Of a DNA stretch of 64,000 nt, positions 3,501 to 57,289 are shown in pieces. Under the pieces are notes generated by a model that was not told the DNA's origin, searched no databases, and saw only the letters and a list, made by a program, of their open reading frames with translations. Every line of letters begins with the position of its first letter. The stretch's first letter is position 1. Made by a program: the position numbers and the translations under genes. Source of the stretch: Tubulanus polymorphus (taxonomy: Eukaryota; Animalia; Nemertea); contig NC_134029.1 of the NCBI RefSeq assembly GCF_964204645.1, forward strand, positions 2,666,001 to 2,730,000, given 5' to 3'.

Positions 3501-4325
3501 TGAATTGAATTATAGAAATTCATTTGTAGGAAAAGGAAAAAAATGCGATGTAACTGAAATGATTTGCGCTCGACTCGTGCATGGTGAGGGCAATAGACAT
3601 GCAGTATTCTTTTTATCGAAGACTGGGCCTGTTTAATGTGCATTTAAAACAATTCTATCACCAAATATTACAGCGGAAGTGAATTCTAATCTACCTCAAT
3701 TCTGCGACTGCCCGATAGCATGTGACTACAACCAACACGACGTCAGACTTTCATACGCCAGATACCCGACTGAAAAACACGCTCAAACTTTGGCTGAAAA
3801 AGCTAAACTTGACGCCGCTTATATCAAGTAAGTGACGCAGAACATCAAATAAGGAAAGTCCTAGTATTTCTTATTAATGATTTATTCGATACCATATCGT
3901 TTTACGTATACAACACAATAATGATATCAAATCGAGTCCATAATTGACTAAAAAGTAAACAGTATAGTGTTAGGACTATCCCTTGCTGTCCCGAGTTTTC
4001 TACGAGATATAGTGGTATTCTTTCAGATCGAATGTAGCGGCTTTGAGGATCTTTTTCGAGGAATTAAGTTACGAGAAGATTGAACAACAAGTCGCGGTTA
4101 CATTTGGAGATTTATTGGGTGAGGTTTAGATCTGTCTGATATATATTTCTAACCCCATATAATCCCTTTGAATTAATGTAATATTGCTTTTTTACAGGTG
4201 ATATTGGCGGACAAATGGGATTATTTCTCGGTATTAGTTTGATGACTACGCTGGAATTTCTGGAGTATTTTATCAATATCATATTTCGCATCATCAATAG
4301 AAACCAACAATTCAAACAAGATTAA
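577..4325 (+). CDS. DEG/ENaC (ASIC/FaNaC superfamily) amiloride-sensitive sodium channel subunit, 11 coding exons
   Basis: Phase-consistent exons: 577 (or ATG 694)-757, 2081-2348, 2421-2509, 2592-2728, 2822-2941, 3024-3170, 3264-3411, 3530-3583, 3674-3827, 4027-4118, 4198-4325. Motifs: pre-TM1 STSCHGL, TM1 RKLVWTSLVAIGLACIVWQV, FPAVTICNYN, GNCYTFN, Cys-rich thumb (CVLECQSRYVTQRCGC; CDCPIACD) and TM2 [26 protein letters not shown]. Start codon choice is uncertain. Confidence 0.93.
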
Positions 4326-30100: not shown

Positions 30101-31129
30101 CAGGTGCGATTCGCAATTCAAACCCGCATCTCAAAGACCGTGTAATACTGGTGGTCGACAGTGTGGAGCGGCCTGGTATAGTGGACCGTGGAGCAAGGTT
30201 AGTAATATCAGGGAGGTCCCCCTCCCCGATTATATCAAAACTCTCAGCACCACGACGCCTCTTAGGTAATTAACTGATGCAATTTTCTAATTGGCATTCA
30301 GTGTTCAGATTCGTGTGAAAGTCAGGTGCAGGTTCGACCCGTGGTGTGTATGATAAGAGGAGTGAATTCGGTCCTGCAGTCCACGACCGATTCTAACTGC
30401 ATCAGAGAACTGAAACCTAGCAATGAACAGCCATGTGACAGGACGAGATGTGGCGCTGATTGGTTCATGTCCGCCTGGTCTGAGGTACGTAAGCTAACCG
30501 TTTCAACGGGTTGGACCAGATTTGTCTGACATATCCTGAATTTTGAATGTTCTGCAGAATTCATTCTTCCACTTGATTTATTCAGTGTTCAAAGAATTGC
30601 GGATCCGGGCATCAAACAAGAAAGGTCATGTGCATGGTCGGTGGTCTTACTCCGAGTACCAGTTGTCCGGATGGAAATAAACCAGTTGATTCTAGAGACT
30701 GCAATAACGGCGAATGTCCAACCGAGGCCCCACTGGGTAAGTAACATATGGCAGACAAGTTTCAATCCAGTTCTACTGTGGATTCAGAGCAATAATTGAA
30801 AAGTATAACTAAATATACTACCAATCGAAACAAAACAAAAACGGCCATTTTGAGTCGACCTTCTGTTGACGTCGATGGTAAAATCGCGATGTCTAAAACC
30901 GCGCTTTGGACTATAAGCTCATTATAGGTTTTATTCAAGTCAATGACGCCACTTAAAATGTTGAAAGATCGTGCTGGTAAATTACATTTTAGATCCATCG
31001 TGCCGAGACAAAATGCAGCAGTGTAAAACAGTCGTTCAGGCGAGACTTTGCAGATACGGATATTACAAGAATTTGTGTTGTCGATCGTGTACTCTGCACA
31101 AACGTCATCATCACCACAAACATCACTAG
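10269..31129 (+). CDS. ADAMTS-like secreted ECM protein (THSD4/ADAMTSL6 - ADAMTSL4 type): signal peptide, TSR, Cys-rich, spacer, Gly/Arg linker, 5 TSRs, PLAC; no protease domain
   Basis: Exons 10269-10273 (ATG AG, less certain), 15516-15573, 15734-15849, 17365-17434, 18614-18716, 18913-19043, 24635-24839, 25684-25862, 26169-26263, 26343-26692, 26777-26906, 27134-27338, 30039-30197, 30302-30484, 30586-30736, 30993-31129 are phase-consistent. Motifs: [56 protein letters not shown], five W..W..CS..CG-type repeats and [22 protein letters not shown]...CCRSC. Confidence 0.92.
16295..16364 (+). other. candidate mutually exclusive alternative exon for the second half of TSR1
   Basis: AG...GT-bounded, 70 nt, same length and phases as exon 17365-17434; encodes [23 protein letters not shown]. 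Both splice sites are weak. Confidence 0.3.
18159..18194. repeat. (CTG)12 microsatellite, intronic
   Basis: Read directly from the sequence. Confidence 0.95.
22936..22974 (+). other. candidate internal alternative first coding exon of the ADAMTS-like gene
   Basis: aaacaATG context; encodes hydrophobic [13 protein letters not shown]; strong CTG|GTAAGT donor; phase 0, compatible with exon 24635. Confidence 0.45.
28408..29232 (-). CDS. stand-alone NHL-repeat (beta-propeller) protein, intronless CDS, nested antisense in an ADAMTS-like intron
   Basis: 274-aa ORF with about six NHL repeats: [111 protein letters not shown]. It lies inside intron 27339-30038. Confidence 0.9.
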   Translation of the reverse strand: MTESTADLCHKYPGLSAQVLEFGSGPCQLNDPWFIDVDDCGDLSVADTYNHRVQIINTTAYEATCSIEGGFHRPRSAKFTRTAGLGFLIVADTGNRRVLILSRPSEAESAQIDCEFKGDHLREPTDTLIDHLTGHIYVTDTSNNAVFMIGERVTPFQYLNQPMGIAMDDKGRMFVTETGDACVKVFDRSGVQIGRLDGGPCHLNRPKGICIDRRGFVCVADELNDRIVKFSPDLRMTSVVVRELSRPKGVAVNRENQLFATSADRSNVIKLFNI

Positions 31130-33186: not shown

Positions 33187-36116
33187 TTATGATTTATCTT
33201 TCTTTTCTTTTTTCTCAGCATCCGACTTGGCCTCGGCTGCTTCGTGCTTCTTCAATAACTCATCAACTTCGCTCGTTGGTAAAACCTTCAATAACAATTT
33301 AGGTATCAGTGGAAAACCGGTTCTAACAAAATCAAAAATTTTTGATCGAATATCATTTTTTTGCCCCGGGAACCACTCGAATTCTATTAGCGGTCTAGTC
33401 ATTCAAAATAAATGATTGGCTGTGATGTTTAGATTGGCCGCTTCTTCTATTTGTATAAGGCTTAGAATCGTGCACATAGGACGGGTGGAGTGGGGATGGT
33501 GGTGCAGGAAGAGGGGACTGGAAATACAATTACCTTTATAACAGTTTTCCCATTTTCTCTTGTCAATGTCGCTAATTCCATTTTCTCTGATGATAATTTA
33601 TTGATATCTAGAGTTTTATTGAGAACTTTCAAACTCAACAACAAAGCATCTTTCAATTCTATTGTCTCTTTATAGTCCTGTTTCAACATCGAAATAGCAG
33701 CCTATACAAATAGAAATAAATAAACACACTCAATCGCAACGACAAAGCACAAGTTTTCTCAGACCTGTAGCCAGGGCAGATAGTGGCTAGGTGGAGTTCT
33801 TTGGTACTCAAATGAGCACAATTCAGGGAATTTTTAGCAGGTTGGAAGTTTCTTTTCCCCTTAACCTAATCAGTGCCATTCAGGACATTACTAGCAAGTC
33901 AAAGGTGTCTTTTTTCCCAATTGATGGAAAACAGAGAATACCTTGCCGCTGCCACAATTTGAACCCCCGAGTTTGACGGCCTTCTCACAGATCTGAGGAA
34001 TTAGGTAATAGTGGTAGAGATGTACACTTACTGCACTATTGTTACCGATACAAGTAGCTTTCCATCCTCCGTAGTTTCCACTAGGATCACTCTGATACAA
34101 CTGATATCCGTGGTGTTTATCCCAACCCATATATAACAATGAAACACCGAACGGTCGTTTACCTGATACAAAAACAAACATAAATCAATTAACAATGAGC
34201 CAATCGAATAACTTCTGTCAGTTAGGACCTAGCAATATTACCTCCGATTTGTGTATATAACTGTTTATAATCACAGATAGAACTGACTAACTGTTCACAG
34301 GGTTGAGGTTCACCATAATAGAATAAATACCTACAAAACAATCATCGCATAAATATCAGATCAGATCAAGCAAAAATTGTAGAGCTGTGTTCATTGTGGC
34401 AAAATATCCGATGAGGGCGGTTTCTTTTCAAGAGGAGCCTTGTGCCAATGAGATATAAACAAATTTGAATTCTCCGACTTATCCGTGATTTTCAAGAGGA
34501 GTCAGAATTCTCTAATTTTCCCCACAGGGAAAAATGAATCTGATATTCCTTGATGATTTTTTCTGACCTGTAAAAGGGAGACCCAAAACCGGACGCAAAG
34601 TTCATACCTCTGAGCAGAATAACGCAATTCATTAATCAAGAAATTTGCGTCGGAGGTGATTCCTGCAACGCTACAAGCCATATCCCTAGAAATAAATCGA
34701 AACTTGCAGTTCATTATTTTCATTCGAAATTCATAAATCGCAGGAAATTGCGAATGATTGTTAAACTTACTCGTGAAGTTTGTAGATTTTTTCTGAGTAG
34801 GAAACCTCGTCGAGGAGTTTATTCGTGTTACGTCTTTCCGCAGCTAAAACGACGCCATCTTTAGCTAGAATACCGAGACACGTACCAGCGTGGCCGATAG
34901 CTTCCATCGCATATTCAACCTGGTACAATCGACCTAAAAACAAAACAAAATGAGGACTATTCACTGACCGATCTATTCAATTAAAATCAATCAATAATTC
35001 GTCAAATTCTACAGATGACAAATAAATATTGTATGAACCCTCAAGAATTAAAATCTGAGATGCATGCCAACACAGACCCTGGCCGCAGATCCTACATTGA
35101 AATTGGTCTAGTTAGTTACCTAATTGTTGGTGGTAAGCTTTTTATAATCGAATGGGCTTATACCAACGGATCAATGTGGTTTGTGAAAATATCCGATCGT
35201 GAAACTAAATCAGACAGGTTACTGACTAGTGATCACTAGGCGGCCACAAGTATCTAGCCCACAGGGACTTGGCACAAAAAGTTTTTGACCCCAGTATCCT
35301 AGGTACTACATATGAGAAGACTTTTTATATATAGTACCTAGGATACTGGGGTCAAAAACTTTGTGTGTCAAGTCCCTGTGATCTAGCCAATTAGATGCGT
35401 TGCATTGATAAAGCGAATCTGCCAGTGAAAAACAACGCATCTGATTGTCGGTGAAAGTTAATTGAAATGAAGTGGCTATTCGCACGGACACGTACGAATA
35501 ATTCCGGAGGTTATTCGTAAAGGAAGGGATAGGGTTAGGGTAAGGTGAGGCTATATCTAGTTAAAACATTCGGCCGACTGTCAGCGAGCTTGGTGGTCTA
35601 GTGGTACGATGCTGTGCTAGTAATTTACTGGTTTACTGGCCCGGCATCGAGTCTCATTCTATTTTTCTCTTACTCTCTTCTCTACACTTTCCTTGAATTT
35701 TCTAGGTCCCGCACCTTTTTGTACGATGTGTGGCGAATATACATTCTACCCAGAACAAAATGCAAGGCTTTAATCTCTACTTTAGATTCTGACTATCTAA
35801 AATAATTTTGATTTCGATGGCTTACCTTCAGGAGAGAAGATAGTCGTACGCGAGTCATATCTGCGAGACTGGAAAAAAATTCATCACAATAAAATAAGTT
35901 TGATTGATTTTTTTTGTGATTCAGCATTTTTAATGTTTGATTTCGGATTCAGACCGCGAATCAGGAAATTAATTCATCAATTCTAATTATTTATAAATAA
36001 ACAATACATCACAGATTCAAGCTAGAATAATCGATTACAACCGGGAAAACGATTAACTGTGTGATAAGATTTGTATAAAATTTTGCTGCCGGCAAATTTC
36101 AATCTAAACCCACCAT
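33187..36116 (-). CDS. PSMA4: proteasome 20S subunit alpha type-4 (alpha3)
   Basis: Exons (minus) 36116-36114 (ATG only), 35868-35826, 34933-34771, 34685-34608, 34330-34242, 34161-34032, 33701-33534, 33285-33187. They give [57 protein letters not shown]...[54 protein letters not shown]...EKKEKKDKS. Confidence 0.98.
35260..35380. mobile_element. 121-bp hairpin MITE with 8-bp TSD (hAT-like)
   Basis: Arms of ~53 bp (cacagggacttggcacaaaaagtttttgaccccagtatcctaggtacta... and its near-perfect reverse complement), flanked on both sides by ATCTAGCC (35252-35259, 35381-35388). Confidence 0.88.
35587..35655 (+). pseudogene. tRNA-derived relic (SINE head or tRNA pseudogene)
   Basis: A-box-like TGGTCTAGTGG, loop-like CTAGTAA and degenerate B-box (atcgagtc); no intact cloverleaf. 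Confidence 0.35.
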
Positions 36117-36866: not shown

Positions 36867-37129
36867 CGACATCACTAGCTACTAACAAACTTCGTCTTTC
36901 CAATCTAAAATTAAAACTTCTATTTTATATGATGCTTACTTGTGATATTAGATTAAAGTTATATATCCTTTTATTCCGTGAGACACTATCGATTTGTGAA
37001 ACGTCTTTCATATTGCATAACGTGTACATATTGCACCGTGAAACTTACCCTAATTTCTTTGATTTCTCCACTAAATATTACTGCAATGAAATGTGACTAT
37101 TTCAGAGGCAGTTGATGTAATAATCGAAG

Positions 37130-40100
37130 ATGCCTAAGTTTGGTAATTCGCTATTCGGGGTGTCTACGTTCTACGCGGCTAGTTTACCTAATGATAAATG
37201 TGGAGCAAATGGTTTACCTCTGACTCCTAATTCCATCAAAATACTCGGTAGATTTCAATACTTAAAAACATTCGAACATCCGAACTGCTGCGTTTATCTG
37301 GATCTGATTCGCTCTAAACACGGTGAGTGTGATTGTGATTATCCTCCAACTCTGCCACCATCCTCGACAGGGATACGAACCATGGCAGATTCTGACCATT
37401 GCCATGGTGTGAAACCTAGTCTAGTACCTAGCCGTCGTTCCTCAAACAACCGTAGGGAACTGGTAACAACGACTGGTATTCAGACTATGTGAAACCCTAC
37501 CTAATGAGCCCCAGTGCACAGATACAGTTGCAGGTTGCGGCACCAATCTGATGACCTGTTGTATAATCTAATTTCACAGATAACTATAAATGAAATAACC
37601 CAGGCTAAAATATGATTTCTTATTGGCTACTAATGACATCATCCAAGCTGCACTGAAAACCTGCACATTTGGGCTTATGAAGCAGGTTTTTTGCCATTGC
37701 CTAATGTCGATGCCATCAGGTTCTAATCTCTGCTGAGGGAGGATGTACGTACTTTAGTACAAATGATGGATATGTTTATGTTTAATTGTTGTATGTACGA
37801 TTATATTGCAGAGAGAATCAGTATCGTCTCCGAATATTATGATAATAATCTGGCAATTGAAATGAAATCTGGTTTATACAGCAAGTAAGTTATACTGGAT
37901 TCTACTTCACTAATACTTGATCAACCATCTCCTTGATCACTGTACGATTGCGGTCTAAACCCTCGTAAAATTCTACGCACCAATACTGAGTAAGACTATG
38001 TGAAATACAGTACATTCTTGTATCTTACTGTGGTCAAGTTGAAACTACGTGTAGTTTTTACCCTGAGTTGGGATCATATACTAAGAAAGAGTTTGAAAAA
38101 GACATTAGACTCTGTCTCAAAGTATTTATTCTTAAAGCGTAAATGTTTACTGAATGTGGTTTTTTTAAAATTATTTCAGTGAATCAATGTTGACTGGTCT
38201 TGCGTTTAATGTTCTACAAGCTCTAAGTTATATTCATCAAAAAGGACTGACACATTGTAATCTATCACCTGAAAATATTCTATTAGATCCAACGGGTCGT
38301 GTGAAATTATCGAATTATGGATTATATCATATGACAGGACATGGGACTGATGTAGCGTTTCCTATCGGGTAGGTTTGAATACTACATCATGAAGTTTTTG
38401 GGACGTGTTAGGAATGTTGATCAAGGGACAGTTGCTCAAAAGTTTGTTGAAGTTGCCCTTCAGATAGATACCGTAGTAACAATGTCAACAAGTCAGTTAT
38501 CCATCTGCCCATTCTACGTTCCTACAACTCATGAATTTGGAGCAACTAGCCCTTGAATATCAACGGTGATATCGTTATTTTGTCCTGACATTTTAGTGAA
38601 TGTGAATATATGTCGCCTGAAACAATAGCTATGGGTCGACCTACGGCTCACGATACAGAGGAACCAATACCTCGTATCGGTCCTAAATCAGATGTCTGGT
38701 CTCTCGGTATGGTGCTTTTGGAGACATATTTGGTAAGTAGATGGCTAAAGAATTTTTGAAGAGTCTGATAACTGTCGCGCACTGATGTCTCAATTTTTTC
38801 ATGTCTCATAGGGAATAAAACTTTATTCAAGTTTAACGGTCAAACAGAAATTAAGAAAGGTGCTTTCATTCCTTACATCGAGTAAGTATGGATACTATTT
38901 CTCATCTATTTGATTCTTTAAATTAGTCGTCATTTTTTACAAATTTTAACTCGTAGATTCAGAGCCATTGGAACAAGTGCTTCATGACAATGGTTTAACA
39001 TTGAAATTGAAGGTATGATCAGTGTTTAGTTTCCTGATGAAATCTCAATGGTTTGTAAGATTTCATGTGCTATTTTGACTGATATTTTCAGGATATGCCA
39101 AAGAATCTCAGAGAATTTTTCACACTTTGTCTGACAACATCAACTTCTACGAGGTAAGACGTAGCCGAAATGCTAAAACTTCATTAGCATTCTTATATTC
39201 TGACTGAAATTCATATATTTCAGACCTACAGTTCAGACTTTGATTTGTTCAAAAATATTCAATGAAAATCGCAAAACATATGTAAGTAAAGATTACAATT
39301 TGGAAGAAACTACGCTTTGAAGATGTTTGAAATTTGATGTTTTTATCGGTTTTATTTTCGTAGGTTCCACATAAGAATGGTTATTTACCGTTAAGCGCAC
39401 AAGCTCGCAGTTTGGACCTAGAAATGCCTGTATTGGATGAGGAAAGCCTTGGGAAAGGTATAAACATTCTAGCAAACCTGTGATGTTCCATATCAAAATG
39501 CACAAGTTACTGTACAGTAAAACCTCTATAATGAACACCTTTGGGTCTGGGCAAAACGTTCGCTGTGGAAAGGTGTTAGCTATGGAGAAGTTTGAATTTT
39601 GACATCACACAATCTTGTGGTCACTCATTGCGAAGATCAATAGAAATCGTATCCTACACAGATGCACGATTCACGTATCATTTGGCTATCTAATTTTTAA
39701 CAATTTAAATCTCCACACATAATCAACACAGCAACACAACCTTACAGGTTGAAATCCATATGGCAAGTGACCAAAAATAAAAAAGATATCAATACAATAT
39801 GCAGAATACAATACGTAGAATGTCAGGAATTAATCCTTACACTCGTCAATTGACCCCCAGACATACTGGTACATGGACACTGTATGCTCTTGAGAGGTGT
39901 TCATTGTAGAGAGCTTCTCTTACTTGAAAATGAAATTTTCGTTGCGAGGAATAGTGTTCATTAGTACATAGTGGGTGTATTTGCAGAAACAGATGTGGAT
40001 CATTTAGCTGAGAGAAGTATGAGCGAGGTTTATTACCTATGGACGTTATCCGGTGGATACATAAACTCAGTGTTGAAGAAAGCCGGTTTAACTAAAACGA

Positions 40101-43100
40101 ATCCGCCGGTTACGATGATGCCTCAGTTTGTCGTTGAACAAGGAGAAATGTTCGGACAAGTGAAAGATCAGTCATCGTTGTATAATAAAACAGTGGTGGT
40201 TTTATCATTCGAACAGCTCCGACAGGTAACGCACATTTTACTTCTGAATCTAAACACCTGAGATATCCTAAAAACAGTTACATTATATATTCGTACCGAT
40301 ACATTTTATCTGACTGTACATCATCATTTATGTATATAGTGTTATTGTAGTGAAAAATTCAATAACTTTGATTAGAACTTAATGCCTTTTTCTGTAGAGA
40401 TTGGAAAATCTGGATGAAACGGCGTATTACCCACTGTTAGAGGGAGAAGAGTAAGTACAGATTCAAACGCCCTGTTGAATTATTATGTTATTTAGGAATT
40501 TTACCCACTTTATTGTTTTTCAGTTCATTTTTACCTCACAATAATGGTAATCACAGCGCAGGAGGACTGCCCACTTCACCGAGTATAGCTAGTCTTAACG
40601 AGACGGCTTCACTACCGACTAATATCAAAGAAAAAGATATTGAATATCAGGTACTCAATCAGTTAAAACGACACTCATCTAAACACATTGTGTACTTTCA
40701 AACGTTGAAATCTAACTTCATTTTGATACACGGATGAACTTATTTCAATTCAACGATTAAGAGTTGTTTATTTTATTCTGTTGTAGTTTCATCGTATAAT
40801 ATTGTACGATCGTTTGTTAATCGGCTACCCTCATAAACGCCCACAGATCTGGAAGGAAGCTCGAGTTGATGTACCTCCACTCGTCCGTAATCTTGTCTGG
40901 GCTGCTCTTCTTGAAGTTGAGGTATATAGGTTACTAGACAAACTTCTTACGCCTAAGAATTTATCCCTTAGATGTAAGAGTTTTATCTCAGTAATTCTTG
41001 GAGATACTGCGCTCACCACTGCTGATTGCCTCTAATTATCATGTGCCCCGGACTTTGATTGCCTCTGATTATTGTGCTCCCAGGACAAAATATTTGAAAT
41101 TGACCTCCAATTTACTTGAGGATGACCCATCACTAACCCTTGAGTTTTATGAATGTGGTATATCGCTGTTTTTTCACACAGGGCGACTACCAAGAAAAAT
41201 ACGACGCAATTGATAAAGAAACACCTACAGCAACAGACAGACAGATAGAGGTTGATATTCCGCGTTGTCATCAGTACGACGAAATGTTATCTTCACCGGT
41301 CGCTCACGCAAAATTCAAACGTATTCTAAAAGCGTGGGTCGTCAGTCATCCGCAATACGTTTACTGGCAAGGATTAGATTCTCTTTGCGCGCCATTCCTT
41401 TACCTTAACTTCAACAACGAAGGTAAAAAACCAGTCGATTCATTACAGTAGTACCTCTTATACTCGGACATGTGCTGCTAAAACTAAGACTTCTGACTAA
41501 TTCAAAAAATGAAATAATCTTCTCAGATCAATTTTGCCATTGGTTCCAGTTTGTCTGAGTTAGGTGAGATTATTGTGTAAAGAAGTGGATGTCTTTGTCT
41601 TATTGAAGTGTAAATGGGTGCCTCGGGCTTTATATTTCAGCACTCGCCTATACCAGTCTGACGAAGTTCATTCCAAAATACCTGAATAAATTCTTCTTGA
41701 AGGATAATTCACTGGTTATAAAAGGTGCGACAAAAACTCCGTAGTTTTTCGTATACAACAAGGTGAAATATTAAATGTAATCTATATTTTGTTCTATTTG
41801 TAGAGTATTTAACGGTATTTAGTCATTTGATTGCATTCCATGATCCTGAGTTGAGTACACATCTTGATGGTATTGGATTCATTCCTGATGTAAGTCAGAC
41901 TCTAGATTTTTCATGAAATGAACTGAAATTCATTCAGTTTCTGTTAAATACGGCAATATTGTTGTAATGTTTTACAGCTGTATGCTATACCGTGGTTTCT
42001 GACGATGTATGCTCGTAAGTATCCTCTCTCCGCTTTCAACTCAGCTGAAAACTAGTCAACCCCAAATTAGTGATTGATGATTTTGGCTGTAAATAGAGTA
42101 ATAAATATCTTCTAAACAAAAACCTGGCTTTAGACGAGTGTAGTGGGGTTATCAGGCGGGCTCTGTATTGGGAGTTGATTGTTATGTATTTTCCCTAGTG
42201 AATCAACTGTTTTGATATTTGATTTCAGACGTTTTTCCTCTACACAAGATATTTCACCTGTGGGACACGTTATTACTGGGTAATTCATCGTTCCCGTTGT
42301 GTATCGGAGTAGCGATATTAGAACAGTTGAAACTGCAGCACAACCTCCTGTCTCACGGGTTTAACGAATGTATTTTACTATTCTCTGATATGCCTCGTAA
42401 GTCAATGCCGTTTATTCGTTCAGTTTCGTTATTAGTCAGTGATTAATGCCAGGAGTCTCGTGTTCTATCAGCATTTCTCATTCTTACAGAAATCGTAATC
42501 GAGAGATGCGTTCAGGATTCTATTAAGATATTTTGTAACACGCCGAAAAGTTCAACGTATCGACAGTACGCGCGTCCCGCTAAACGATCACCAGGGGGAG
42601 CTACAGATCGTCATTCTTACTATTCACAGGACTATCACGATTTGCCGGTTAATGAATTGGTGAGTACCACGAGTTAATGCGAATACATCAAGGCTTAACT
42701 CATCTAGAAATTCTCACTCTTTTCTGAATTTATTTTCGCAGTCGATGGAACCGGTTCCTCTAGAGGAACTACGCGAAGAGAAATGTCCTCGAATATCGGC
42801 TGAAGATCTGGTCGAGTTGGGTGAACTGATCGGACCAGTCGCGTCGAAGAGTCCCACAAAAAAATCCAAATCTAGTCGTCCGAAAATATTAATGATCGAT
42901 GTTCGAAGTCACGATGAGTAAGTAAAAAGTTTTATTGAGTAGTTACTAAACTCTGAGTAATGTAGAGTCTACAGTCTACTAAACTCTGAGTAATGTAGAG
43001 TCTACAGTCTACTAAACTCTGAGTAATGTAGAGTCTACAGTCTACTAAACTCTGAGTAATGTAGAGTCTACAGTCTACTAAACTCTGAGCAATGTCGAGT

Positions 43101-43962
43101 CTACAGTCTACTAAACTCTGAGTAATGTAGAGTCTACAGTTTACTAAACTCATGTACTAGACTAATGTAGGGTCTTTAAGGACTGATAATATCTGGATTA
43201 AACATATTTTACGATCAAACCCATTAAAAAGGTTGTCACCGTAAAAGTCACCTCATCATTTATCACTATTTGAGTCCCAATTTGTATTTCCGATTAAATT
43301 AACAAATCGTAAGTCGTCATAAGTATTCGACATAATGATCTTCCCAAATGTAATAAAAAATGCTAGTTTTACTGGGCATCTATGTATAGGTGGACCATTT
43401 AATGATATCCCATTTAGATCAAAATCCAGATAAAACTGATCTGAATTAAGATCATGGCCTGTAGCTCAGCAAGGGAGGGTAGATACTTTTTCCCCCCCTT
43501 AAAAGTGGAGTGAACCCATCTTTTTTATCAGTGGATTTGAAAGTAGTGCAAATTGTCATTTTCTTTGTTATTCACCTGATGTGAATGAGTTGTTTTATAT
43601 TTCAGTTATCAGCGAGGTTGTATACCTAACAGTATAAACCTACCGTATTCAACGGCATTTAATTCCGATAAAGATTTGAACCCGTGCGCCGCCGTACATT
43701 TGCTCAACTCGATGAAAGCACAGGTTAAAGTGATCATCGGAAACCGAGGAAAGAATGCCGTCTTCGTAAGTTTGAAAATGAATGAAATCTCTTCGAATTT
43801 CAAGTATTGATAGATTATTGTTAATTCATGAGGTTGTTTTTCGATTTTCAGTTTGCGAATGAATTAGTTCGACTCGGTTATAGTAAAGTGTGTATTCTGC
43901 ATAAAGGAATCGATGTTTTCACTTATACAAACGTTTTAATAGTTCCTTCACACGATTTATAA
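37130..43962 (+). CDS. TBCK: TBC domain-containing protein kinase-like protein (pseudokinase + TBC/RabGAP + rhodanese-like), many small exons
   Basis: [24 protein letters not shown] (exon 37130-37322); [36 protein letters not shown]; [15 protein letters not shown]; [21 protein letters not shown]; [22 protein letters not shown]; [24 protein letters not shown]; rhodanese-like IDVRS...[10 protein letters not shown]; last exon [21 protein letters not shown]...HDL* ending at 43962. Confidence 0.97.
37417..37487. mobile_element. 71-bp mini-MITE of the same family with 9-bp TSD
   Basis: Flanked by TGTGAAACC at 37408-37416 and 37488-37496; shares gtaacaacgactggtattcagacta with the 36809 copy. Confidence 0.82.
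38424..38553. mobile_element. short TIR MITE, representative of a family with GGGCCCAGTT(G/T)C-like ends
   Basis: agggacagttgctcaaaa / tttggagcaactagccct inverted ends; similar-ended ~100-150 bp elements at ~20581-20730, ~29558-29690, ~31187-31285 and ~44041-44175. Confidence 0.55.
39515..39920. mobile_element. Tc1/mariner-pogo (Tigger-like) non-autonomous element
   Basis: TA|CAGTAAAACCTCTATAATGAACACCT left TIR; degenerate right TIR AGGTGTTCATTGTAGAGAGCTTCTCT|TA; located in a TBCK intron. Confidence 0.6.
42944..43151. repeat. 33-bp minisatellite, ~6 copies, in a TBCK intron
   Basis: Unit tactaaactctgagtaatgtagagtctacagtc, near-identical copies, no spacers. Confidence 0.95.
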
Positions 43963-46163: not shown

Positions 46164-48082
46164 TTGCGGATAAGATGATTCGGAAAAACATTAGTTTTAG
46201 AAAAATCGCAGTATCTATTGAAGAAAATGCAGGAATTTCGCAGGAGTCGGTGATTAGATTTTAATTCTAATTCTGGAAATTTCCAAGAAACGATTATAAA
46301 TCTTTATTCTGTTATGAATAATCCAGTTATACTATCAATCTTTTTGATCTCGGGGGTTGTTTTTGCTGTCGTCGCAGTGTATTAAATCAAGCGGCGTTAA
46401 GTTAAATCTATTTTCAAGTCAAACACTTTGTTGTGGCGGTAAAATGCGATTAGCACAACTGAGAAAATCGACGAATTTGCAAATTTGACAACTGCGGCTT
46501 GGGGGATAGGAGAGAAATGTGAAAATTACCGATTGATTTAATCCTAACTTCGTTTTGATGACGGTTCAATGAAACACTTCAGTCATTACGCGCATTCATA
46601 ATGTGGTGGTACATGTGACATTTATACTCGCATATATCGGTATATAAGTCGTTCTGCATAAAAGTTACACTTTCCATTGATTTATTAATATCAAATAAAC
46701 TTGACTTACATAACTTAACAGCAATCCTTTTAAAACTATTTCAGATTGAATGAAGACTATAAAAGCACAGCAAGACATTAACACGAACATGAAACGCGCT
46801 CCAATCTAGGCCTATTATAACCATTGATGAAACACTGTCTCTATTGCTGAACGATGACATAAATGTATATTACTGGGATATAAGTCGAATGATTTTAGAC
46901 TTTTTAATGCGGATTTTCATCTTAAGCTTCGCCGTTTTTGTAATCTCTTATAAACACGGCTGCGCCCCTATAGTTTTAATTAACTAGACGGCGAGATCTG
47001 TTTTCTTTTTATTAATTCAGGGTTTATGGATTTCGAGACAATTCAAACAACACGAGTAAATACAAGCATCTGGAAGTCGATTTAAGTGAAAGAAAGCTAA
47101 ATGAAAAGTGGCAAACATTGCGTAGCCAACTCGTTAATATTCATAGTGTGAATTTAAGATTGATGTCGCTGGTTTTTCGCTGGTGACGACAGAGATATTT
47201 TTGTCCTACGCGGTGGCCCGATGGTTGCTCTGACGCTCTACGCGAACAGTGATGAATAATTCCGCGAACGACGTAGTTTTAATTATGTATTTAGCGGCAC
47301 AGACAAGCCGATTAACGTGGATTAATCCGGGGATTTACTCGCCTTCCAATAGTTAAACCTTCAGTACAAGACATGCCTGGAATATTCAGGCTTAAAAGCA
47401 TAAATACCTTCCTTGACTTGGATGAACGAAGATCGATTTCATATTGTTCTTATTTTGAAGGGATTGCTGCAACAGTTAAATCATTTTCTTTTTAAGTAGA
47501 GAAATTTTAAGGCAAATCTGTCTTTTACTTATTTTGATTAACAAATACGTTTCTTAGTAATTTAAGGTACGTAGACTCAACATAGCATTGTATGAAAGGA
47601 CCCTTTAACTCACTTCTACATATTAGTGCACTTGTTCCATTCCCCAGTTCTTTGACTCTATTGAGTAAAAACATCGAAAATGAACTTACTTTAACTCCTA
47701 GATAACTTTAACTCACGGAACCGGGCCCTAAATGCTCTGTTAGCCAACAGACAACCAAGAACGACTTTACATACCCTCGCGTGGGTCTATTTTGCCATAA
47801 GGTGACTTAATATGGTGTTGCACCAATCCCTTCAATCTAACATGTTCATTGTTTTATTTACATTTCGTAATTTCGAAACATCATACGCATATCCCTGGTT
47901 TTACGAGGATAATGACACGGTATAAGAAGTTTTACTTGTTTTACAACCAGGACCCTGGGAGAGTTTTATACGGCATACTGAAGGACACCTGTATCGGTTG
48001 GTTTTAAACTGCGCATCGTTCCCAAAGCGATATGAAGAGTATAATGCAATAACTATCAATAATGTAGCAAATAGATTGCAAT

Positions 48083-48412
<330 letters not shown>

Positions 48413-51118
48413 TCGTTTCTATTCAATTCCCTTTCCATTATTGATAGAAGGTTTATGGCTTGAAAAAAACATACGCACGAAATTGACCCGTAAAATGATG
48501 GAAGGGTACTCGAGTACGATGGCAGATTTATAGAAAATATGGAAAACCTTTTGTCGAAAAAATGAACCAAAATCTGGGAATCCTGACGACGCTATATTCT
48601 ACACTCAGCCTTTGAGATTGCTGTAAATAAACAGAGATTCTATGATTGCGATGCAAGTAATTTTTGATCGTTAGAATCTAATCTTATTTCGATCTCATTT
48701 GACAAAGAAATCTAAACAAAATGCTTTCAACTGTGTTATAGGTATTTGTACGGAGACGCGAGTGCCCGGTATTGAGAGTGTGATTACACGGGTGAGTGCA
48801 TGTTCAGCGAATAAACATAGAAAACAACAAACAATTTGTTTGATGAACAGGAAATTACTGTGACAGTTTAAGACAGGATCCACACCTCTTCAGTCTGATA
48901 ACCTTTCAGTTTCTTACTGCACAGTAGAGAACAACATCTTCACTTACTGTGTCGTGAGATTCTGTTGGCTTTCTCGTGGGTTGGTTGGGCAGAAAGGGGT
49001 CAACGGAGTTATCGATAAATCATTCTGTATTCAAAAGTTGTGAAATGTTTTTTTTATAAATTCTAATTATTTCACTATTATGCAACGCTTCATTAGTGAG
49101 ACTCTGTACGACCCTTTGCAGGAACACGTTTAACATATCGTTATTACTGCAACATGTCTTTGAAGTGTACTAGTGGCCGGGTATAATAGCCGGAGGATGG
49201 AGGAGAGATGACGACATGTTGTTTCAGTGATCGCGGAGGCTATCATACACGGGTTTGTGTAAAATACACGCTGTCTCTAACACGTACTGACGACATATTC
49301 GCTAATTAGACGGACAACAACGTGAGTAAGGTACTGTATCGTATCGAACGAGTGAGGGGACATCTTGTCAAGTCGTTATTTGGAAAATAAGAAATCCGAG
49401 CGCAAATGAGTAGCTGGTGAAGCGTCGTAGCATTGGCTATGATTAATATATAAAAAATTGGAAGCACGGCGAGTTTAAGTATAAAGAGATGACAGAGGGA
49501 GGATATGGGGGGGGATAGATAGGACGAGAAGACGGACGGAGAAGGAAGGGGGTCAACAAGAGGAGGAGAGACCGGGGGCTGAGTTGAGGGAATGGATATC
49601 TCGCTGAATAATGATATATAAGTCAATGTGGTTTTAGCTAATGATAGAACTGGTCAATATCACCGTTCGGTCAGAGTCAGAGATTCTCAGATAAATCTGT
49701 GACAAATTAGATGCACATTCACCTGTCTATCAGTTAATAGTTCTCACAGTTCTTACCACGGGTTAGTTCTCATATTCCTGCGGTGATCTGTTATTTTTTT
49801 ATGAATTAAATCGATGTGCTGCGCTGGAAATTGGTACGTATCCTATACCAAAGCTATCGCGAAGGCGTCTGCTGAGACATATTTCAGTTTTTATTGAAGA
49901 ATTACTCGTTTGGCTTGATACGCGTATTGTTATGATGACTTAAAGGTCATAAGTCAGAGCTGTTATCAGTATCAACGAAAAAACCCAGCGTACGACCGGC
50001 CGCCGATCCCCCGCCATTACAACTACAAAAGACGGGAAATATATATTGGAAAAAAGCAATTTCTGGTGGATAGTGGTCGGATAGAATGCGCGTACGGGAG
50101 GCTTAATGAAGCGAGAGGATGGGCTGATTGAACATAATAGAACCACTGCAGTGGTCTCTGATACAGACTGAGGTCTTGAGGTCTTTGGGACTTCTTTTAA
50201 TTAGTCAAAGCATACATTCTTTCTTTTCCGGTTGGTCTGATTAGACAGAGCAGTTTTTGTGCCGTATAGATTATATCTAGGTGGTGAGGTTGGTTGGATT
50301 GAATAAAAATAAAAGTCAATTAACCGTCGAGTTCATTTAGACGTGAAATTTGCCGGTCATTATGATCATATTACACGCGGTCAGAGTAATAAATATCGTC
50401 GGTGAGTGAAGGGAGAATGGCGCCGAGGAACCATCGGGGGAAAGAGAGAAACAAAACGGGAAGAAAAGAACACTCAACCAAAAACCTTTCCAGACGTAAC
50501 AAGATCTATTTTACGGTGGCCGGCCTCCTATTATGTTTTGGCTACTGCCATATCAACTTCAACAGTAATCTGAATACTAATCCTGCGGGAGTCTCCGAGC
50601 GCACGGGTTTCAGATGATCCGGGATGGACTCGGATTATTGTTACTCGTGTTATTAGATCCATTAACTCGGCGACAAGATCATTTGTAAAGATTAGTAAAT
50701 CTTACACCATTGACCAAAAATAAAGCACACTTCTGCTGCCACTGGAAGTGTTTATGACTGAGGCTGATGATTCCACCCCCTCATTCTGTCGAGGAATCCC
50801 GTAATCAGATTATCAATCAGTTGTCCATGAAGTTCTTTCTAAACTCTTGAATACTTTAACAGGGTGATGGAAGTTACAGGACTCAGCAACTCAAGTGGAA
50901 TTTATTAGATATATATGACATGTCCCTTATCGTTATTGTTCGCATTACTTTCATGATTTAAACTAAAAAGCGGAATTCTATAAGTAAATGTTGCTACTGA
51001 TTCGACTTGTTCGACTCCACAAAATGTAATAATACAAAGCTTCTGGAAATATGCCATGTTGTGTGGTGGCAGTACACTCGCTGCGACTCAGTGAAACAGT
51101 AACGTTTACAACACGAAC

Positions 51119-53723
51119 ATGTATTCTCGTAATCTTATCCTTCTCAGCTTCGTCGTTTATTTCCATTCGACTTCAGCTTGTAAATGTGTACCACCAGCTA
51201 TAGAACAGGCTTGCACTTCGAATTTCAGTAAGTATCTAATTAGAATAGAAAGAGTACCAGATAGATTTAGTGTGAAAATGTTGATCGAGTAGAATTGTAT
51301 CGTGGTTGTTACAAAAACGTCCCTTTTTTCACAGGTTTTCTGTTAATATATCTATAAGTTTACTTTTCACTGTAATACCAACTACTTTTAAAAGCTGGTT
51401 CTGCTAAACAAATTCGTTCTAAAACTAGTTTTCGAAACACTCCTGAAATATTGAATTGAATTGTATATTGTATACTATCAATAAATTAACCTTACACTCT
51501 CTTACACTCTGTCAATACGTATGACAGGTTTTATACGTATATATATATATATACCTGAACTCGTACTTGGAATACAGTGTTATATACGTTACGCTTTTAA
51601 TAAGTGCGGCCAAAGTCGGATATAGCATAGTATAGTGCCTTGGCGTAGAGTTAATAAGTTGTGCGGTTAACGTATCAGCGCATTAATACATTGGCGCATG
51701 AATACATTGATAATTGGGTATTAACCGCGGCAAAGGAACAGTTCATTTACACGTTGACCGACGACTAGTGACAGTTGACTACTGTTGGTTGTTTGTTGGT
51801 TGGCCCAGTGGAGAGGTGATAGAGTGCATATTTCACCCGCTGGTTGACGGCCGACGGATGACACGATGCAATGTTGTCGCCAATGTATGTACAAGGATCG
51901 TGGCGACAGAGACGATAGAGTGTATAGACCTATATCATCCGCTGGTTGACGGTCGACGGATGACACGTCGCAATGTTGTCGCCAATGTATGTACAAGGAT
52001 CGTGGGTTGACTGGTTGACGGGTGACCACACAACACAAACAAACAAGAGAAGTAAATCTAAACCGAAACAGTAAACTATAAGAATCAGCTACGAAAGTTT
52101 CATTTTTGATTTTGAAAAAAGAGCCGTCACGTATCGACGTCGTTCTGTAGCAATGTGAACAATGCCATATTTCACCGTCCCCACAGTTGGTTTTTTGGAG
52201 GCGCATCTCACGTTGACAGTGCTGAAAATAAATAATGAATCTCCTGTGATTTTGAAGGCTCGACCGTGTTGAAACTAATATCAGAGAACTGGAATTGACT
52301 AAAGAAAAATAGAAATGCAATTTCTATTTTAAGTATGGGGTTTATCATGTGTTTGGTCACGTGGTGTGTTTGGTGTTTAAGGTTAATAGATCGTTAATAG
52401 TTAATTTGTTGGTTGGTAGATACGTCGACACGTTGGCACATGGAATGTTAATGACTGGCGATTTGAATGTGTCGACATGACAACTTTCTTTGGGATACAC
52501 ATAAACCGAAGAACTCAGTAAGCATACGCGAAGGAACTATACTATGCAATACCCTACTTGAGCCATAAGTGCTTTGTGTTCCAAACTGAAACGATGATGT
52601 CTACAAAATCCTTAGCGATCGTGGTCGTTATTTTGGCAATGACGATGGTTAAATCTATCGATAGTTGTTCGTCGTTGAGTGATATGTGTACTGCGAATTT
52701 CAGTAAGTAAATATCTGTTGTTATCGTATGATAACGGATAACTCTAGGGTATAAGATTGTGTGTGTTTTTTTGCCATTTACTATTGAGTTTATAGAAAAA
52801 GATTTGAATTTCTAAATCATAATCTAATATATCTCTCCCTGTATATTCACATTAATACCATTATCTTTGCAGCGATTCGAGTGAAAATTATATCCTCAAA
52901 TGGAACGGTCGATTCGAACCCACCATCAAGTGGTAATATCGTATATAATGTCAACCTTATTAGTGTATATAGGGTATGTAAAAGTTCACCTTTAATGTAT
53001 TCTTCAGACGCATTTGATAAAATATGCAAACGGTATATATCTAAACACTGAGTTGGACCCTGGATTCTAAAACGTTTTAGAATCCATGGTTAGACATTCC
53101 GAAAACAGTTTTTGAATCAAGGTCTCCAAAGCCAATTTTGATTAAACAACAACCATTCTAAGACCATTTCCAGACTAAAAAGAAAAAAACATTTAGTGCT
53201 CTTCTGGGGCTGGTTTTATCGATTGCTACGTATTATCTTGAATCCGGAATTAACTGAAAATGCATTGAGTTAATCCTCGGAGCAAAGTTAAACAGTCCCT
53301 GTTGATTTGACCTACAGTGCCCGATATTCATACCCGATTATAACTTTTTTCAGTGGCACAGCGACCACCCAAGAACGGTTAACACCATTTCAACACCCAG
53401 TTCAAGTGCCGCATGTGGAGTAAGATTGCCATTGGGTTCCGGCAAAATATTAATGGGTAAACATCTTATGTTCTTAACATAAAGTCGTATCTATACTAAT
53501 AAAATCGAGCCCGATAATTCGTTTTCTTTCCGTTTCAGGAGGTTTTTACAAGTCCCAAGCCCAGGTTCACTCGTGCTCCTACAAGGCTGATTGGTCAACA
53601 GAAGAGGAAACTGAAATCTATAAGACTCTTCAGAAATGTGGAGCCGACCTGAACAGATCAAAACTGACTTGGACCGTTTTTATCGCTCTCTTCGTTTGGA
53701 TAACGTTTTTGAACCAGAAATAG
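51119..53723 (+). CDS. single-domain TIMP (N-TIMP/NTR) protein with C-terminal GPI-signal-like tail, isoform a (165 aa)
   Basis: Exons 51119-51227, 52873-52973, 53354-53456, 53539-53723 give MYSRNLILLSFVVYFHSTSA/CKCVPPAIEQACTSNFTIRVKIISSNGTVDSNPPSSGNIVYNVNLISVYRWHSDHPRTVNTISTPSSSAACGVRLPLGSGKILMGGFYKSQAQVHSCSYKADWSTEEETEIYKTLQKCGADLNRSKLTWTVFIALFVWITFLNQK*. Mature Cys at 1, 3, 12, 71, 97 and 118 match the N-TIMP pattern; TPSSSAACGV motif present. Confidence 0.88.
51608..52564 (-). mobile_element. internally deleted Merlin (IS1595/ISXO2-like) DNA transposon
   Basis: Imperfect ~39-bp TIRs starting GGC (ggccaaagtcggatatagcatagtatagtgccttggcgta versus reverse complement ggctcaagtagggtattgcatagtatagttccttcgcgta). 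Perfect 8-bp TSD ATAAGTGC (51600-51607, 52565-52572). Minus-strand zinc-ribbon fragment QHCQREMRLQKTNCGDGEIWHCSHCYRTTSIRDGSFFK. Internal ~96-bp direct repeat at 51818-52005. Confidence 0.88.
52594..52702 (+). CDS. alternative first coding exon (1b) of the TIMP gene
   Basis: MMSTKSLAIVVVILAMTMVKSIDS/CSSLSDMCTANF; 109 nt, ends CGAATTTCA|GTAAGTA exactly as exon 1a does; phase 1 into exon 52873. Confidence 0.8.
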
Positions 53724-54179
53724 AGATATTCACTATAGAATTTCACTCTATGGATTAAGTACAATACATGCACTATTTATATATGTTAAGACTGTGATAA
53801 AAAAAATTTTGAGAGGTTGCCAATATTCCGCCCAACGTTACGGAGAATTGTCCTGCTCTTATTTGATATATGTACATGTTATAAATGGCTTTTCATAGAT
53901 TCGGTTTATTACAAAAGTTTTTACAAAAGAATCTTTTCCACAACAAATTTTTTCTAAAGAAATACGCATATGTATATACATCAAAGATGAAAAGATATTT
54001 TTTGAATAAACTTTGAATTGAATGAGAAAAAAATTGAGAGTTGAATTGATAACTGATCCACTGGAAAATATATGACTGATAAACGATCTCACTAGCTTTT
54101 GACATTTCTATTGATGGCATAAACATGATAGATCAAGGCGAATTAATGATAACCTTTTGTAATTGGTGATAAGGTGATG

Positions 54180-54566
54180 CCTCTCCCTCTCCCTCTCCCT
54201 CTCCCTCTCCCTCTCCCTCTCCCTCTCCCTCTCCCTCTCCCTCTCCCTCTCCCTCTCCCTCTCCCTCTCCCTCTCCCTCTCCCTCTCCCTCTCCCTCTCC
54301 CTCTCCCTCTCCCTCTCCCTCTCCCTCTCCCTCTCCCTCTCCCTCTCCCTCTCCCTCTCCCTCTCCCTCTCCCTCTCCCTCTCCCTCTCCCTCTCCCTCT
54401 CCCTCTCCCTCTCCCTCTCCCTCTCCCTCTCCCTCTCCCTCTCCCTCTCCCTCTCCCTCTCCCTCTCCCTCTCCCTCTCCCTCTCCCTCTCCCTCTCCCT
54501 CTCCCTCTCCCTCTCCCTCTCCCTCTCCCTAACCCTCTCCCTCTCCCTCTCCCTCTCCCTCTCCCT
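54180..54566. repeat. (CCCTCT)n / (AGAGGG)n hexamer microsatellite, ~64 units
   Basis: Read directly; one CCCTAA variant near 54527; explains the ER/RG/PL repeat ORFs. Confidence 0.97.
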
Positions 54567-57289
54567 AAAACGTTCAAGACTTCCTACCGAAAACCGGGGA
54601 TCGATAATAATTACTTGTGAGTATAAATCACGACCCATCTACAATGATATAATCACAGAACAGCCAGTAATTTGCTGAAGGGAATATTGGCAAAATAATC
54701 CGCCGTATGAGATACAAAACTGGTTCCATTCATCAGGAAAATGCTTCGGACCAGAGCAAAAGCAATTTCAAGACCTTTTTGCGCATATCCGTGTTATTGA
54801 ATGGGCCGTAAGGAATGATAAAAACGCAGATACAGATAAAAAATAATTGAATAAGATCGTATTGAGTTACCAATTATACAACAGAATATTCCATCTAAGA
54901 ATGAATTTCTGAAAAAAAAGATGTCTGCGCAACATCCATAAGACTTGACCGTTTGTCACGTGTAAACCATCGACCAATCGATAGTAACACGATATGACTC
55001 CTGGTCGCACGTGACTGGTGGTTCGGGTAACCCCTAATACTAATTACCGGCACGTATCGCGCGTCAACTGTAAGATAATAGAGTCGCATCTGTTCTATAT
55101 ACAGTGTGGTCGTACTAATTAACGCTATACCTCGATAAGACAATAGCGGCTACTGTTACACGTATCAAATATCACATGCTTTCTCTGCATCTATATACGT
55201 ATGATGGTTATTCTCTTTATGAACGTGGGAACGAAGGTCACCGAAACTGCCTAGAATTATCAATACTTTCATATAAAACTTGAATTTTCATTAACGCGGT
55301 ATCCATGTCCGCTGATGTGACGACAATCTCCCAAATTGAATGAGAACCAAACAACGTTTAACGTTAGGAATGCTCGACTGTCACAAACGTGATTTCGGTG
55401 TTTGAATTTCGACTTTTTGAACAAGCAAGCTAAATATTCGCTTATACTTCTATGATATACTACAACTGACTAATCAAGAAGGTGAAGTTTGATCTGCAGA
55501 CAGTTTTCGATCGATCCGCGCGATGTTCTAAATGTGTGGTTTGTGTGTATAGTTCATATCTCGCTATATTCGTGTGACATTGTAACATGGTATTACAGTG
55601 TCAATGGAGACGGGGATTATACGCCGGATTATCTCCGCCTAAGCGGATTAACTGTAATGAGATTTGCTAATATGTTTGATGTGTCACCAATGCGACAGTG
55701 CACGGCATTGTCTCTATACAGTCGGGCTCAGTAACACAGTACCCCCATTAGCACCGATCCAGATCCCGAGTTCAGACAAAAAATCGAACTTCTTAAAAGA
55801 GTTTCATTCTTTTGATTTTCAGATCAAATGGAAATTAAACTGATCGAACACCCGGCTAGGTAACCGTCTAAATCGATTCGCCCTCCGGGTTTTTTCCTGA
55901 TTTGATATGCGATGTTATTACCACGGTGAACTCCTTTTGAACCCGGTGACATCCACGAGACGAGATCCCACAGTTCTACACACGTATATACATCAAAACT
56001 CGCAATAAGCTAAGATACCAAAATTTGTAAAATAAGACAATGAGTCGTAACACGTCTACATGCGACAAGTAAAGTGAAGGTCGACTAAGTTGAGTGAAAT
56101 GTATTCGGGGGTAGTTAACAACAGCCCCCCCCCTGCTCTTGTACTGCACTCTACCAGAAACATGTTTTGATGATTCATAAGGATATAGAGAGGATAGGGG
56201 ATACACGCGTAAGAAAGAGGAAGGCTAATCCCATCCAGTTTTACTCAACCCGATTTTCCGCTGATAATCTGGTAACGGTGATGTTCTGGCCAATTAAATC
56301 ATGTCCTTGGTTGACTCGGAAAATTGCTATTTCTTCGTCTTGATGAGTCAGCGATTTTACAATTGACACACAACACACATATTATCCCCCCCTCGCGAAT
56401 ATCTCTTGATTACTTGTTCTTTTGTCATCACTGGTTTGTCAGTGACAGACTAAAATCAGAATTCTGGCCTGTCGTTTTCCCTAATTTTTGTTGTATTTTT
56501 ATCACACGTAGAATCTTCCAGCGAACACGTAAATACACGCTATCGCTCAAAACAATCGTACAAAATCAATTTCTCTATCAAATCGTATTTGTATCCATTC
56601 GTTCGACAAAAGTTAGATTTTTTCAAATGAAATATAAACCACGCGTAAACTCCGGAGATATTGCGAATCGAAAATCTATGGAAGCGATGATAAATATAAA
56701 CCAAATTTTTCGATTAAGAATGAAAATAATGTATTGATACGAACGATTTCAGGGTCCTATTCTCCTCAGTTTGGTGAAAAACAAGTGAATCAAACGAATA
56801 AAAACTATACAGATTTATGTGCAGTAGTTTTATTTTTGCAGTAGTTTTATTCATTTGATGCTCATGTATTTCACCTGATGAGGGAGAGAGATACGATCCC
56901 GAAAACGTTAGCGTCAATCAAACGGTTTTTACTCATTAGAGGTTTACCCGAACTTTCTACCTTCGATTTATTTTGAATCTTGTTTTATTTTTGTCGTCTG
57001 AAAAATTTTGCCGTTTCGCTTTATGTCAAATGTTCGTTCGAGCAATTAAAGAAATGTGTAACTTATATTCGAGAATAAAATGCTTCTGGCTGTTGTTTCC
57101 GTGCGTGTGTGTGTGACTTCTCTCCATTTTTATCCGATGTTAAGAAGCTAAAGCTTGGCAAGCCCCGAGTGCCGTGTAATCATCTATAACGTCACACGGA
57201 GCGCCAATAAGAGACACAGTTTCTCTAGATCCACTGGTTGTATGTATAGTTACTCACTGGTTCTCGCGACCATCAGCTACACGCGTTGC

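Follow-up and report, generated by a model that had tools for sequence, protein, structure and literature searches.

Inhibition by TIMPs is carried by their first five residues, and invertebrates diversify TIMPs by gene duplication. According to excerpts of PMC3679795, this inhibition depends on Cys1 placing its free amine on the zinc and on residue 2 occupying S1', and hookworm AceES-2, whose first cysteine is Cys3 and whose second is absent, shows no MMP inhibition. TIMP-like proteins without C-X-C are described from echinoderms in excerpts of PMC8467561. In insects, serpin-1 (PpSerpin-1) swaps its reactive loops by means of alternative exons, as stated in excerpts of PMC10513286. A metazoan survey of TIMPs kept one isoform per gene and, in its main text, cites splice variants only for human TIMP-1 and has no nemertean passage (PMC10755359). 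Judged by titles and abstract openings, the open-access literature yielded neither a TIMP with swapped N-terminal exons nor a natural membrane-anchored TIMP, and no TIMP combining swapped reactive-site exons with a form lacking C-X-C.

Here we describe LOC141905910 of Tubulanus polymorphus, a palaeonemertean ribbon worm, a gene located at 51119-53723 of a 64-kb window (the whole stretch of DNA that was analysed). Two candidate first exons, 1a and 1b, precede its shared body. The likeness to insect serpin-1 is that duplicated exons would swap a protease-contacting segment on a constant body; however, the serpin-1 exons are C-terminal, number 21 and are seen in transcriptomes (PMC10513286, excerpts), whereas in this TIMP gene two first exons at the N-terminal end would be exchanged; both bring a signal peptide of their own, and 1b has no catalytic-site motif. 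The 1b form also resembles hookworm AceES-2 and Ad-TIMP-1 (PMC3679795) and echinoderm tensilins and TIMP-like proteins (PMC8467561) in that an NTR domain carries a modified cysteine motif at its N-terminus, as far as the excerpts of these sources describe them. Those proteins are, however, products of separate genes, while the 1b tip would belong to an isoform of a canonical TIMP and leave a cysteine unpaired. To our preferred explanation, that exon 1b serves as an alternative first exon and its product is probably a non-inhibitory version of the same TIMP domain, we assign an even chance.

Two first exons and a shared body

The coding features of the gene are the following.

51119..51227, plus strand: exon 1a, encoding the signal peptide (residues 1-20) and a canonical C-K-C inhibitory tip; first coding exon of isoform X1
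52594..52702, plus strand: exon 1b, encoding a strong signal-peptide-like stretch and a single N-terminal cysteine (residue 25), with the conserved C-T-x-N-F ending and donor
52873..52973, plus strand: shared exon 2, from splice reconstruction and match to the NCBI protein
53354..53456, plus strand: shared exon 3, with Cys91 (the Cys70 equivalent) in an S-A-A-C-G loop
53539..53723, plus strand: shared exon 4 to the stop codon, carrying Cys117 and Cys138

A preliminary description of this DNA had proposed two first exons of 109 nt, each with its own ATG, a common C-T-x-N-F ending and donor, and phase-1 entry into a common exon 2, all of which we recover. Both exons are free of stops and encode 36 residues each; 1a ends in C-T-S-N-F and 1b in C-T-A-N-F, GTAAGT follows in either case, and both join the AG at 52872. 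From either first exon the three shared exons read through to 165 residues, and the two proteins are identical beyond residue 36. Exon 1b thus has the coding features expected of an alternative first exon, namely its own ATG, an open frame and a donor in phase with the shared exon. The block formed by the last 16 exon bases and the donor is identical at 21/23 nt, a score reached by none of 1000 shuffles, and the window holds exactly two copies of the 16-nt donor motif, at 51219 and 52694. An assembly artefact from two alleles can be dismissed because the copies differ far too much, being identical at only 42/108 nt without gaps.

The odd cysteine number claimed for the 1b form also holds, with six cysteines in the 1a form and five in the 1b form. 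The further claim that 1b is four residues shorter and lacks Cys3 requires the signal to be cut immediately ahead of Cys25; as a statement on the exons it fails, these being of equal length, and the alignment does not identify which cysteine 1b retained.

An AG inside exon 1b, at 52616, is in phase with exon 1a and, if used, would give an in-frame 194-residue hybrid with both tips; we found no record of such a 1a + 1b product.

TIMP identity and hydrophobic tail

The product of the 1a splice, in which 1a is joined to exon 2, is identical to NCBI isoform X1 (XP_074651111.1, 165 aa). X1 matched the Pfam TIMP family (PF00965) with an E value of 1.1e-11 and 45.3 bits, against a curated cut-off of 23.1, while none of the five single exons, which are too short, gave a TIMP match. 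Among nine solved-structure matches of X1, five were TIMP-2 or TIMP-3, the best being N-TIMP-3 and TIMP-2, with residue 21 aligned to their residue 1. In its AlphaFold model (25-row alignment, mean pLDDT 83) the top 18 fold matches, among the matches listed, were all TIMPs, and the ESM Atlas returned TIMP and NTR clusters only, the best an unnamed, mostly cnidarian cluster at 0.91. The TIMP identity proposed earlier is therefore supported by the Pfam match and by the structure matches to TIMP-2/TIMP-3, and the product of LOC141905910 is a single N-domain TIMP.

The 1a form has the NTR fold and six N-domain cysteines at matching places, their disulfide pairing being taken from the alignment. 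With C-X-C at its predicted mature start, it resembles the N-TIMP domains of TIMP-1/2/3 (PF00965; 3cki, 2tmp, 1br9) and the single-domain invertebrate TIMPs. It differs from TIMP-1/2/3 in lacking the C-terminal TIMP domain, in having Lys at position 2 and a second first exon, and in ending in a hydrophobic tail.

53667..53711, plus strand: hydrophobic C-terminal tail, residues 148-162, mean hydropathy 2.09 over 15 residues; a helix in the model

A tail of similar hydrophobicity was present in four other proteins of at least 100 aa in the comparison set. From hydropathy alone we infer that the tail is a GPI signal or a short membrane helix, and the TIMP of LOC141905910 is likely membrane-anchored. 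A natural membrane-anchored TIMP, if true, would be interesting by itself and would parallel constructs so far engineered. GPI-anchored TIMP-1 (PMC3338742, PMC4156787, PMC6359047, PMC9680204), as presented in excerpts of these papers, likewise places a TIMP domain at the cell surface; however, it is a laboratory construct, whereas the tail seen here is encoded by a natural gene and its anchoring is predicted.

Signal cleavage and the inhibitory tip

In 1a, Cys21-Lys-Cys23 directly follows the signal peptide. The C-X-C motif (C21 and C23) is invariant in 25/25 aligned proteins, a set chosen by likeness to X1; it is absent from the 1b form, which has the single Cys25. We scored cleavage with a von Heijne matrix, which found the right site in 16/26 controls, and with a profile built from 26 relatives. 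Both scores placed the best 1a site before Cys21 (7.86 with the von Heijne matrix). For 1b, the von Heijne matrix gave weak scores of 3.33 before Ile22 and 1.27 before Cys25, while the family profile ranked the site before Cys25 first, with a weak score of 1.31 compared to 7.48 for 1a.

The preliminary description had suggested, as one of two options, that 1b confers a second specificity. Both forms would then inhibit, with the 1b signal cut right before Cys25 so as to expose C-S-S and place Ser in the S1' position. The first rank of this site in the profile of 26 relatives speaks for such a cut, as does the fact that Ser is the vertebrate-type residue 2 of TIMPs (PMC3679795, excerpts). On the other hand, the profile score is weak, the general matrix prefers the earlier site, and 1b has no second cysteine to tie the tip down. 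Moreover, the next cysteine follows Cys25 of 1b after 6 residues, compared with 8 to 10 after C-X-C in 22/23 proteins counted. With C-X-C invariant among the relatives and a cut before the 1b cysteine not clearly favoured, we consider two specificities improbable.

A non-inhibitory 1b form is favoured instead because C-X-C is absent and the von Heijne matrix prefers a cut three residues ahead of the cysteine. It is also favoured because the second cysteine is missing under either cut, with AceES-2 and the echinoderm proteins as precedents. From its sequence, the 1b protein is thus likelier to be non-inhibitory than to have a second specificity. Its signal would most likely be cut before Ile22, so that three residues precede the cysteine and no Cys1 amine would reach the protease zinc. 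Cys91 or Cys117 would be left unpaired in this form, and dimerisation through the free cysteine, also raised in the preliminary description, is a conjecture.

Origin by duplication

That the first exon was duplicated, as had been proposed, is supported by the 21/23-nt donor block and by a collinear remnant of the intron.

51228..51392, plus strand: what is left of a second copy of intron 1; it runs collinear with 52703-52872 and lacks an AG where the acceptor would fall

In this alignment, the 158 nt that follow the donor block of 1a are matched to the genuine 170-nt intron downstream of 1b, giving 90 identities, 61 mismatches and 19 gap columns. With bounds set post hoc, its score was equalled by 0/1500 random window segments and 1/1500 shuffles. 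Since the intron copies align above random, exon 1 and intron 1 were duplicated together. Codons 1-31 of 1a and 1b, in turn, show background similarity (557/1500 random segments score equally), so the divergence of the signal peptides and tips would be no smaller than that of the intron. For the same reason the identity of the surviving 1b cysteine is not fixable: the ungapped 1a/1b alignment sets it opposite Pro25, with Ser and Asp opposite Cys21 and Cys23.

A second exon 2 remnant appeared at first to follow the 1a intron, and proved not significant (676/1500 random segments equal). Homology between the regions upstream of 1a and 1b, seen by eye, was overturned in the same way: with or without the insert described below, it was not significant in 8 tests (best 290/2000), which thus lend no support to a duplicated promoter.

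Signs of selection on exon 1b

The best 10-residue hydropathy is 3.47 in 1b compared to 2.78 in 1a. As background we used in-frame back-reading from 118,582 window positions on both strands, which are not independent of one another, leaving out 48001-48500 and 51001-54600. An open ATG-led frame of 28-45 codons was found at 4017 of these; a value of 3.47 together with a basic n-region occurred at none of the 118,582, and 69 passed a threshold of 2.5. We also let a copy of 1a evolve freely in 20,000 simulated runs, counting it as retained when donor, signal frame and motif survived together. Neutral retention was 0.3-1.5% at a branch divergence of 0.19, 0.03-0.2% at 0.29 and 4-10% at 0.10, figures that depend on a twilight-zone intron alignment as divergence yardstick and on a 1a that starts near the threshold, and that concern a class in which only intact copies get noticed.

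Exon 1b looks selected because its signal-like frame is absent from the background and because neutral decay rarely leaves such intactness. On balance, these results speak for 1b having been constrained during most of its history. Neither orthologues nor nemertean paralogues, on which conservation could be measured, were among 30 matches (10 looked up by name) or a further 12 matches.

The intactness of 1b could instead be luck, whether 1b has decayed neutrally since the duplication or the two exons descend from two old tandem genes, with the body of the upstream gene lost. Codons 1-31 are indeed no more alike than random DNA, and survival rises to 10% at low divergence, with attention drawn only to intact-looking copies. 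However, survival is at most 1.5% at the intron-based divergence, 1b is more hydrophobic than 1a, and no second exon 2 remnant passes the random-segment test. We regard luck as very improbable, and continued selection on 1b for its signal peptide, third cysteine and donor, with divergence of the tip, as the better account.

Isoform X2 and the possible transcription of exon 1b

The NCBI protein cluster of LOC141905910 has two members, X1 and X2 (XP_074651112.1, 135 aa).

52684..52702, plus strand: part of exon 1b in NCBI X2, the sole 1b portion in that model; start at Met31

Since X2 begins with the last residues of 1b, the NCBI model splices 52702 to 52873. Both donors are therefore used in models, as had been expected, that of 1a in X1 and that of 1b in X2, and X2 suggests that the 1b donor may be used in transcripts. 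The full 165-residue 1b protein was found neither in the cluster nor by a search with exon 4, whose single match among 6 candidates is, by its source name, LOC141905910 isoform X2.

X2 starts at Met31 (52684), lacks a signal peptide, and passes over four in-frame ATGs (52594, 52597, 52639 and 52645) with A or G at -3. It is the longest frame in only 4/19 transcript layouts, all with a first exon beginning at 52646-52684, by a longest-frame rule that the NCBI start choice need not obey. Short-read gene models often have truncated 5' ends, and the 5' end of X2 could reflect either sparse short reads close to the junction or a start within the exon. Layouts that derive X2 from a poison cassette lying between 1a and exon 2, or from a splice at the donor-like site 52518 inside the insert, gave X2 as the longest frame in 0/8 cases.

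A transposon-like insert above exon 1b

The region upstream of exon 1b contains the following features, to which no strand is assigned.

51600..51607: left 8-nt target-site duplication, abutting the inverted arm and repeated without change at 52565-52572
51608..52564: 957-nt non-autonomous DNA-transposon-like element with 66-nt inverted ends, an internal 75-nt repeat pair and 22 ATGs
52565..52572: right 8-nt target-site duplication, ending 21 nt above the 1b ATG

The inverted arms (51608-51673 and 52499-52564) are complementary at 50/66 positions, and the flanking duplication is flush and identical at 8/8. With terminal inverted repeats and a target-site duplication, the element is MITE-like. 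Target duplications of 8 nt are typical of hAT, P and Merlin elements; this 8-mer occurs 4 times in the window, counting both strands, and no further copy of the element was found elsewhere in the 64 kb. A TATA-like run lies above the insert, at 51538, and an initiator-like site, a candidate new start, lies at 52515 within it. The insert may have silenced 1b by cutting it from its promoter, or may have supplied a new start; the low complementarity of its arms may mean that it is old and tolerated.

These observations bear on the possibility that 1b is a relic, once a working first exon and then cut from its promoter, whose leaky transcripts use the intact donor to give a signal-less X2 without a role. 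The perfect 8-nt duplication only 21 nt above the ATG and the 22 ATGs inside the insert would fit this, and so would the absence of a signal peptide from X2, the odd cysteine count, the loss of the invariant C-X-C and the retention in the shared body of each of the three cysteines that would partner the 1a tip. Nevertheless, the frame, hydrophobic core and donor of 1b are all undamaged, the insert may be old and tolerated, and the frequency of truncated 5' ends offers another reason for the form of X2. We hold the relic to be unlikely, if clearly less so than two specificities or luck.

Proposed mechanism and significance

In the mechanism that we prefer, the first exon and first intron of a single-domain, likely membrane-anchored TIMP gene were duplicated. 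Exon 1a, with its canonical C-K-C tip, is predicted to inhibit, and exon 1b would be a likely minor alternative first exon leading to a secreted, probably non-inhibitory form. Promoter choice would then determine whether a cell makes an inhibitor or an inactive NTR domain at its surface. In this haplotype, the insert in what is presumably the 1b leader probably reduces the expression of 1b or alters its control. A fuller version we put forward tentatively, as less likely than not: promoter choice would yield two surface-anchored isoforms, one inhibitory and the other, with disabled tip and free cysteine, acting as decoy, dimer or adhesion-type NTR ligand, and the transposon in the leader would supply or tune the second promoter.

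Because the first five residues carry inhibition, switching first exons is the simplest means of turning the product of one TIMP gene on or off, or of retargeting it. TIMP diversification by exon choice, if true, would be a new route for this family; if there are indeed two isoforms, the exon-swap principle of the serpins would have been reinvented at the TIMP N-terminus. The 1a and 1b forms would also offer a natural matched pair to separate protease-dependent from protease-independent TIMP functions.

Surroundings of the gene

An Rfam scan of 50000-55000 gave 0 matches. By eye, no synapsin-like host gene was noticed around the TIMP gene in the window. Its neighbours, also labelled by eye, are presumably a DEG/ENaC channel-like gene (2059-3443), a proteasome alpha subunit-like gene (33465-34184, minus strand) and a TBC-domain kinase-like gene (37124-42918). 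On the minus strand, 28411-29247 holds a 279-residue open frame that we take by eye to resemble NHL repeats, lying opposite and between the exons of what is presumably a thrombospondin-repeat, ADAMTS-like gene (~18786-30526). A 33-nt tandem repeat (6.3 copies, 97% matches) occupies 42944-43151. Simple repeats flank the TIMP gene on both sides, with 109 CAG units at 48085-48411 and 64.5 CCTCTC units at 54180-54566, and its intron 2 contains a 34-nt near-perfect palindrome (94%) at 53057-53090.
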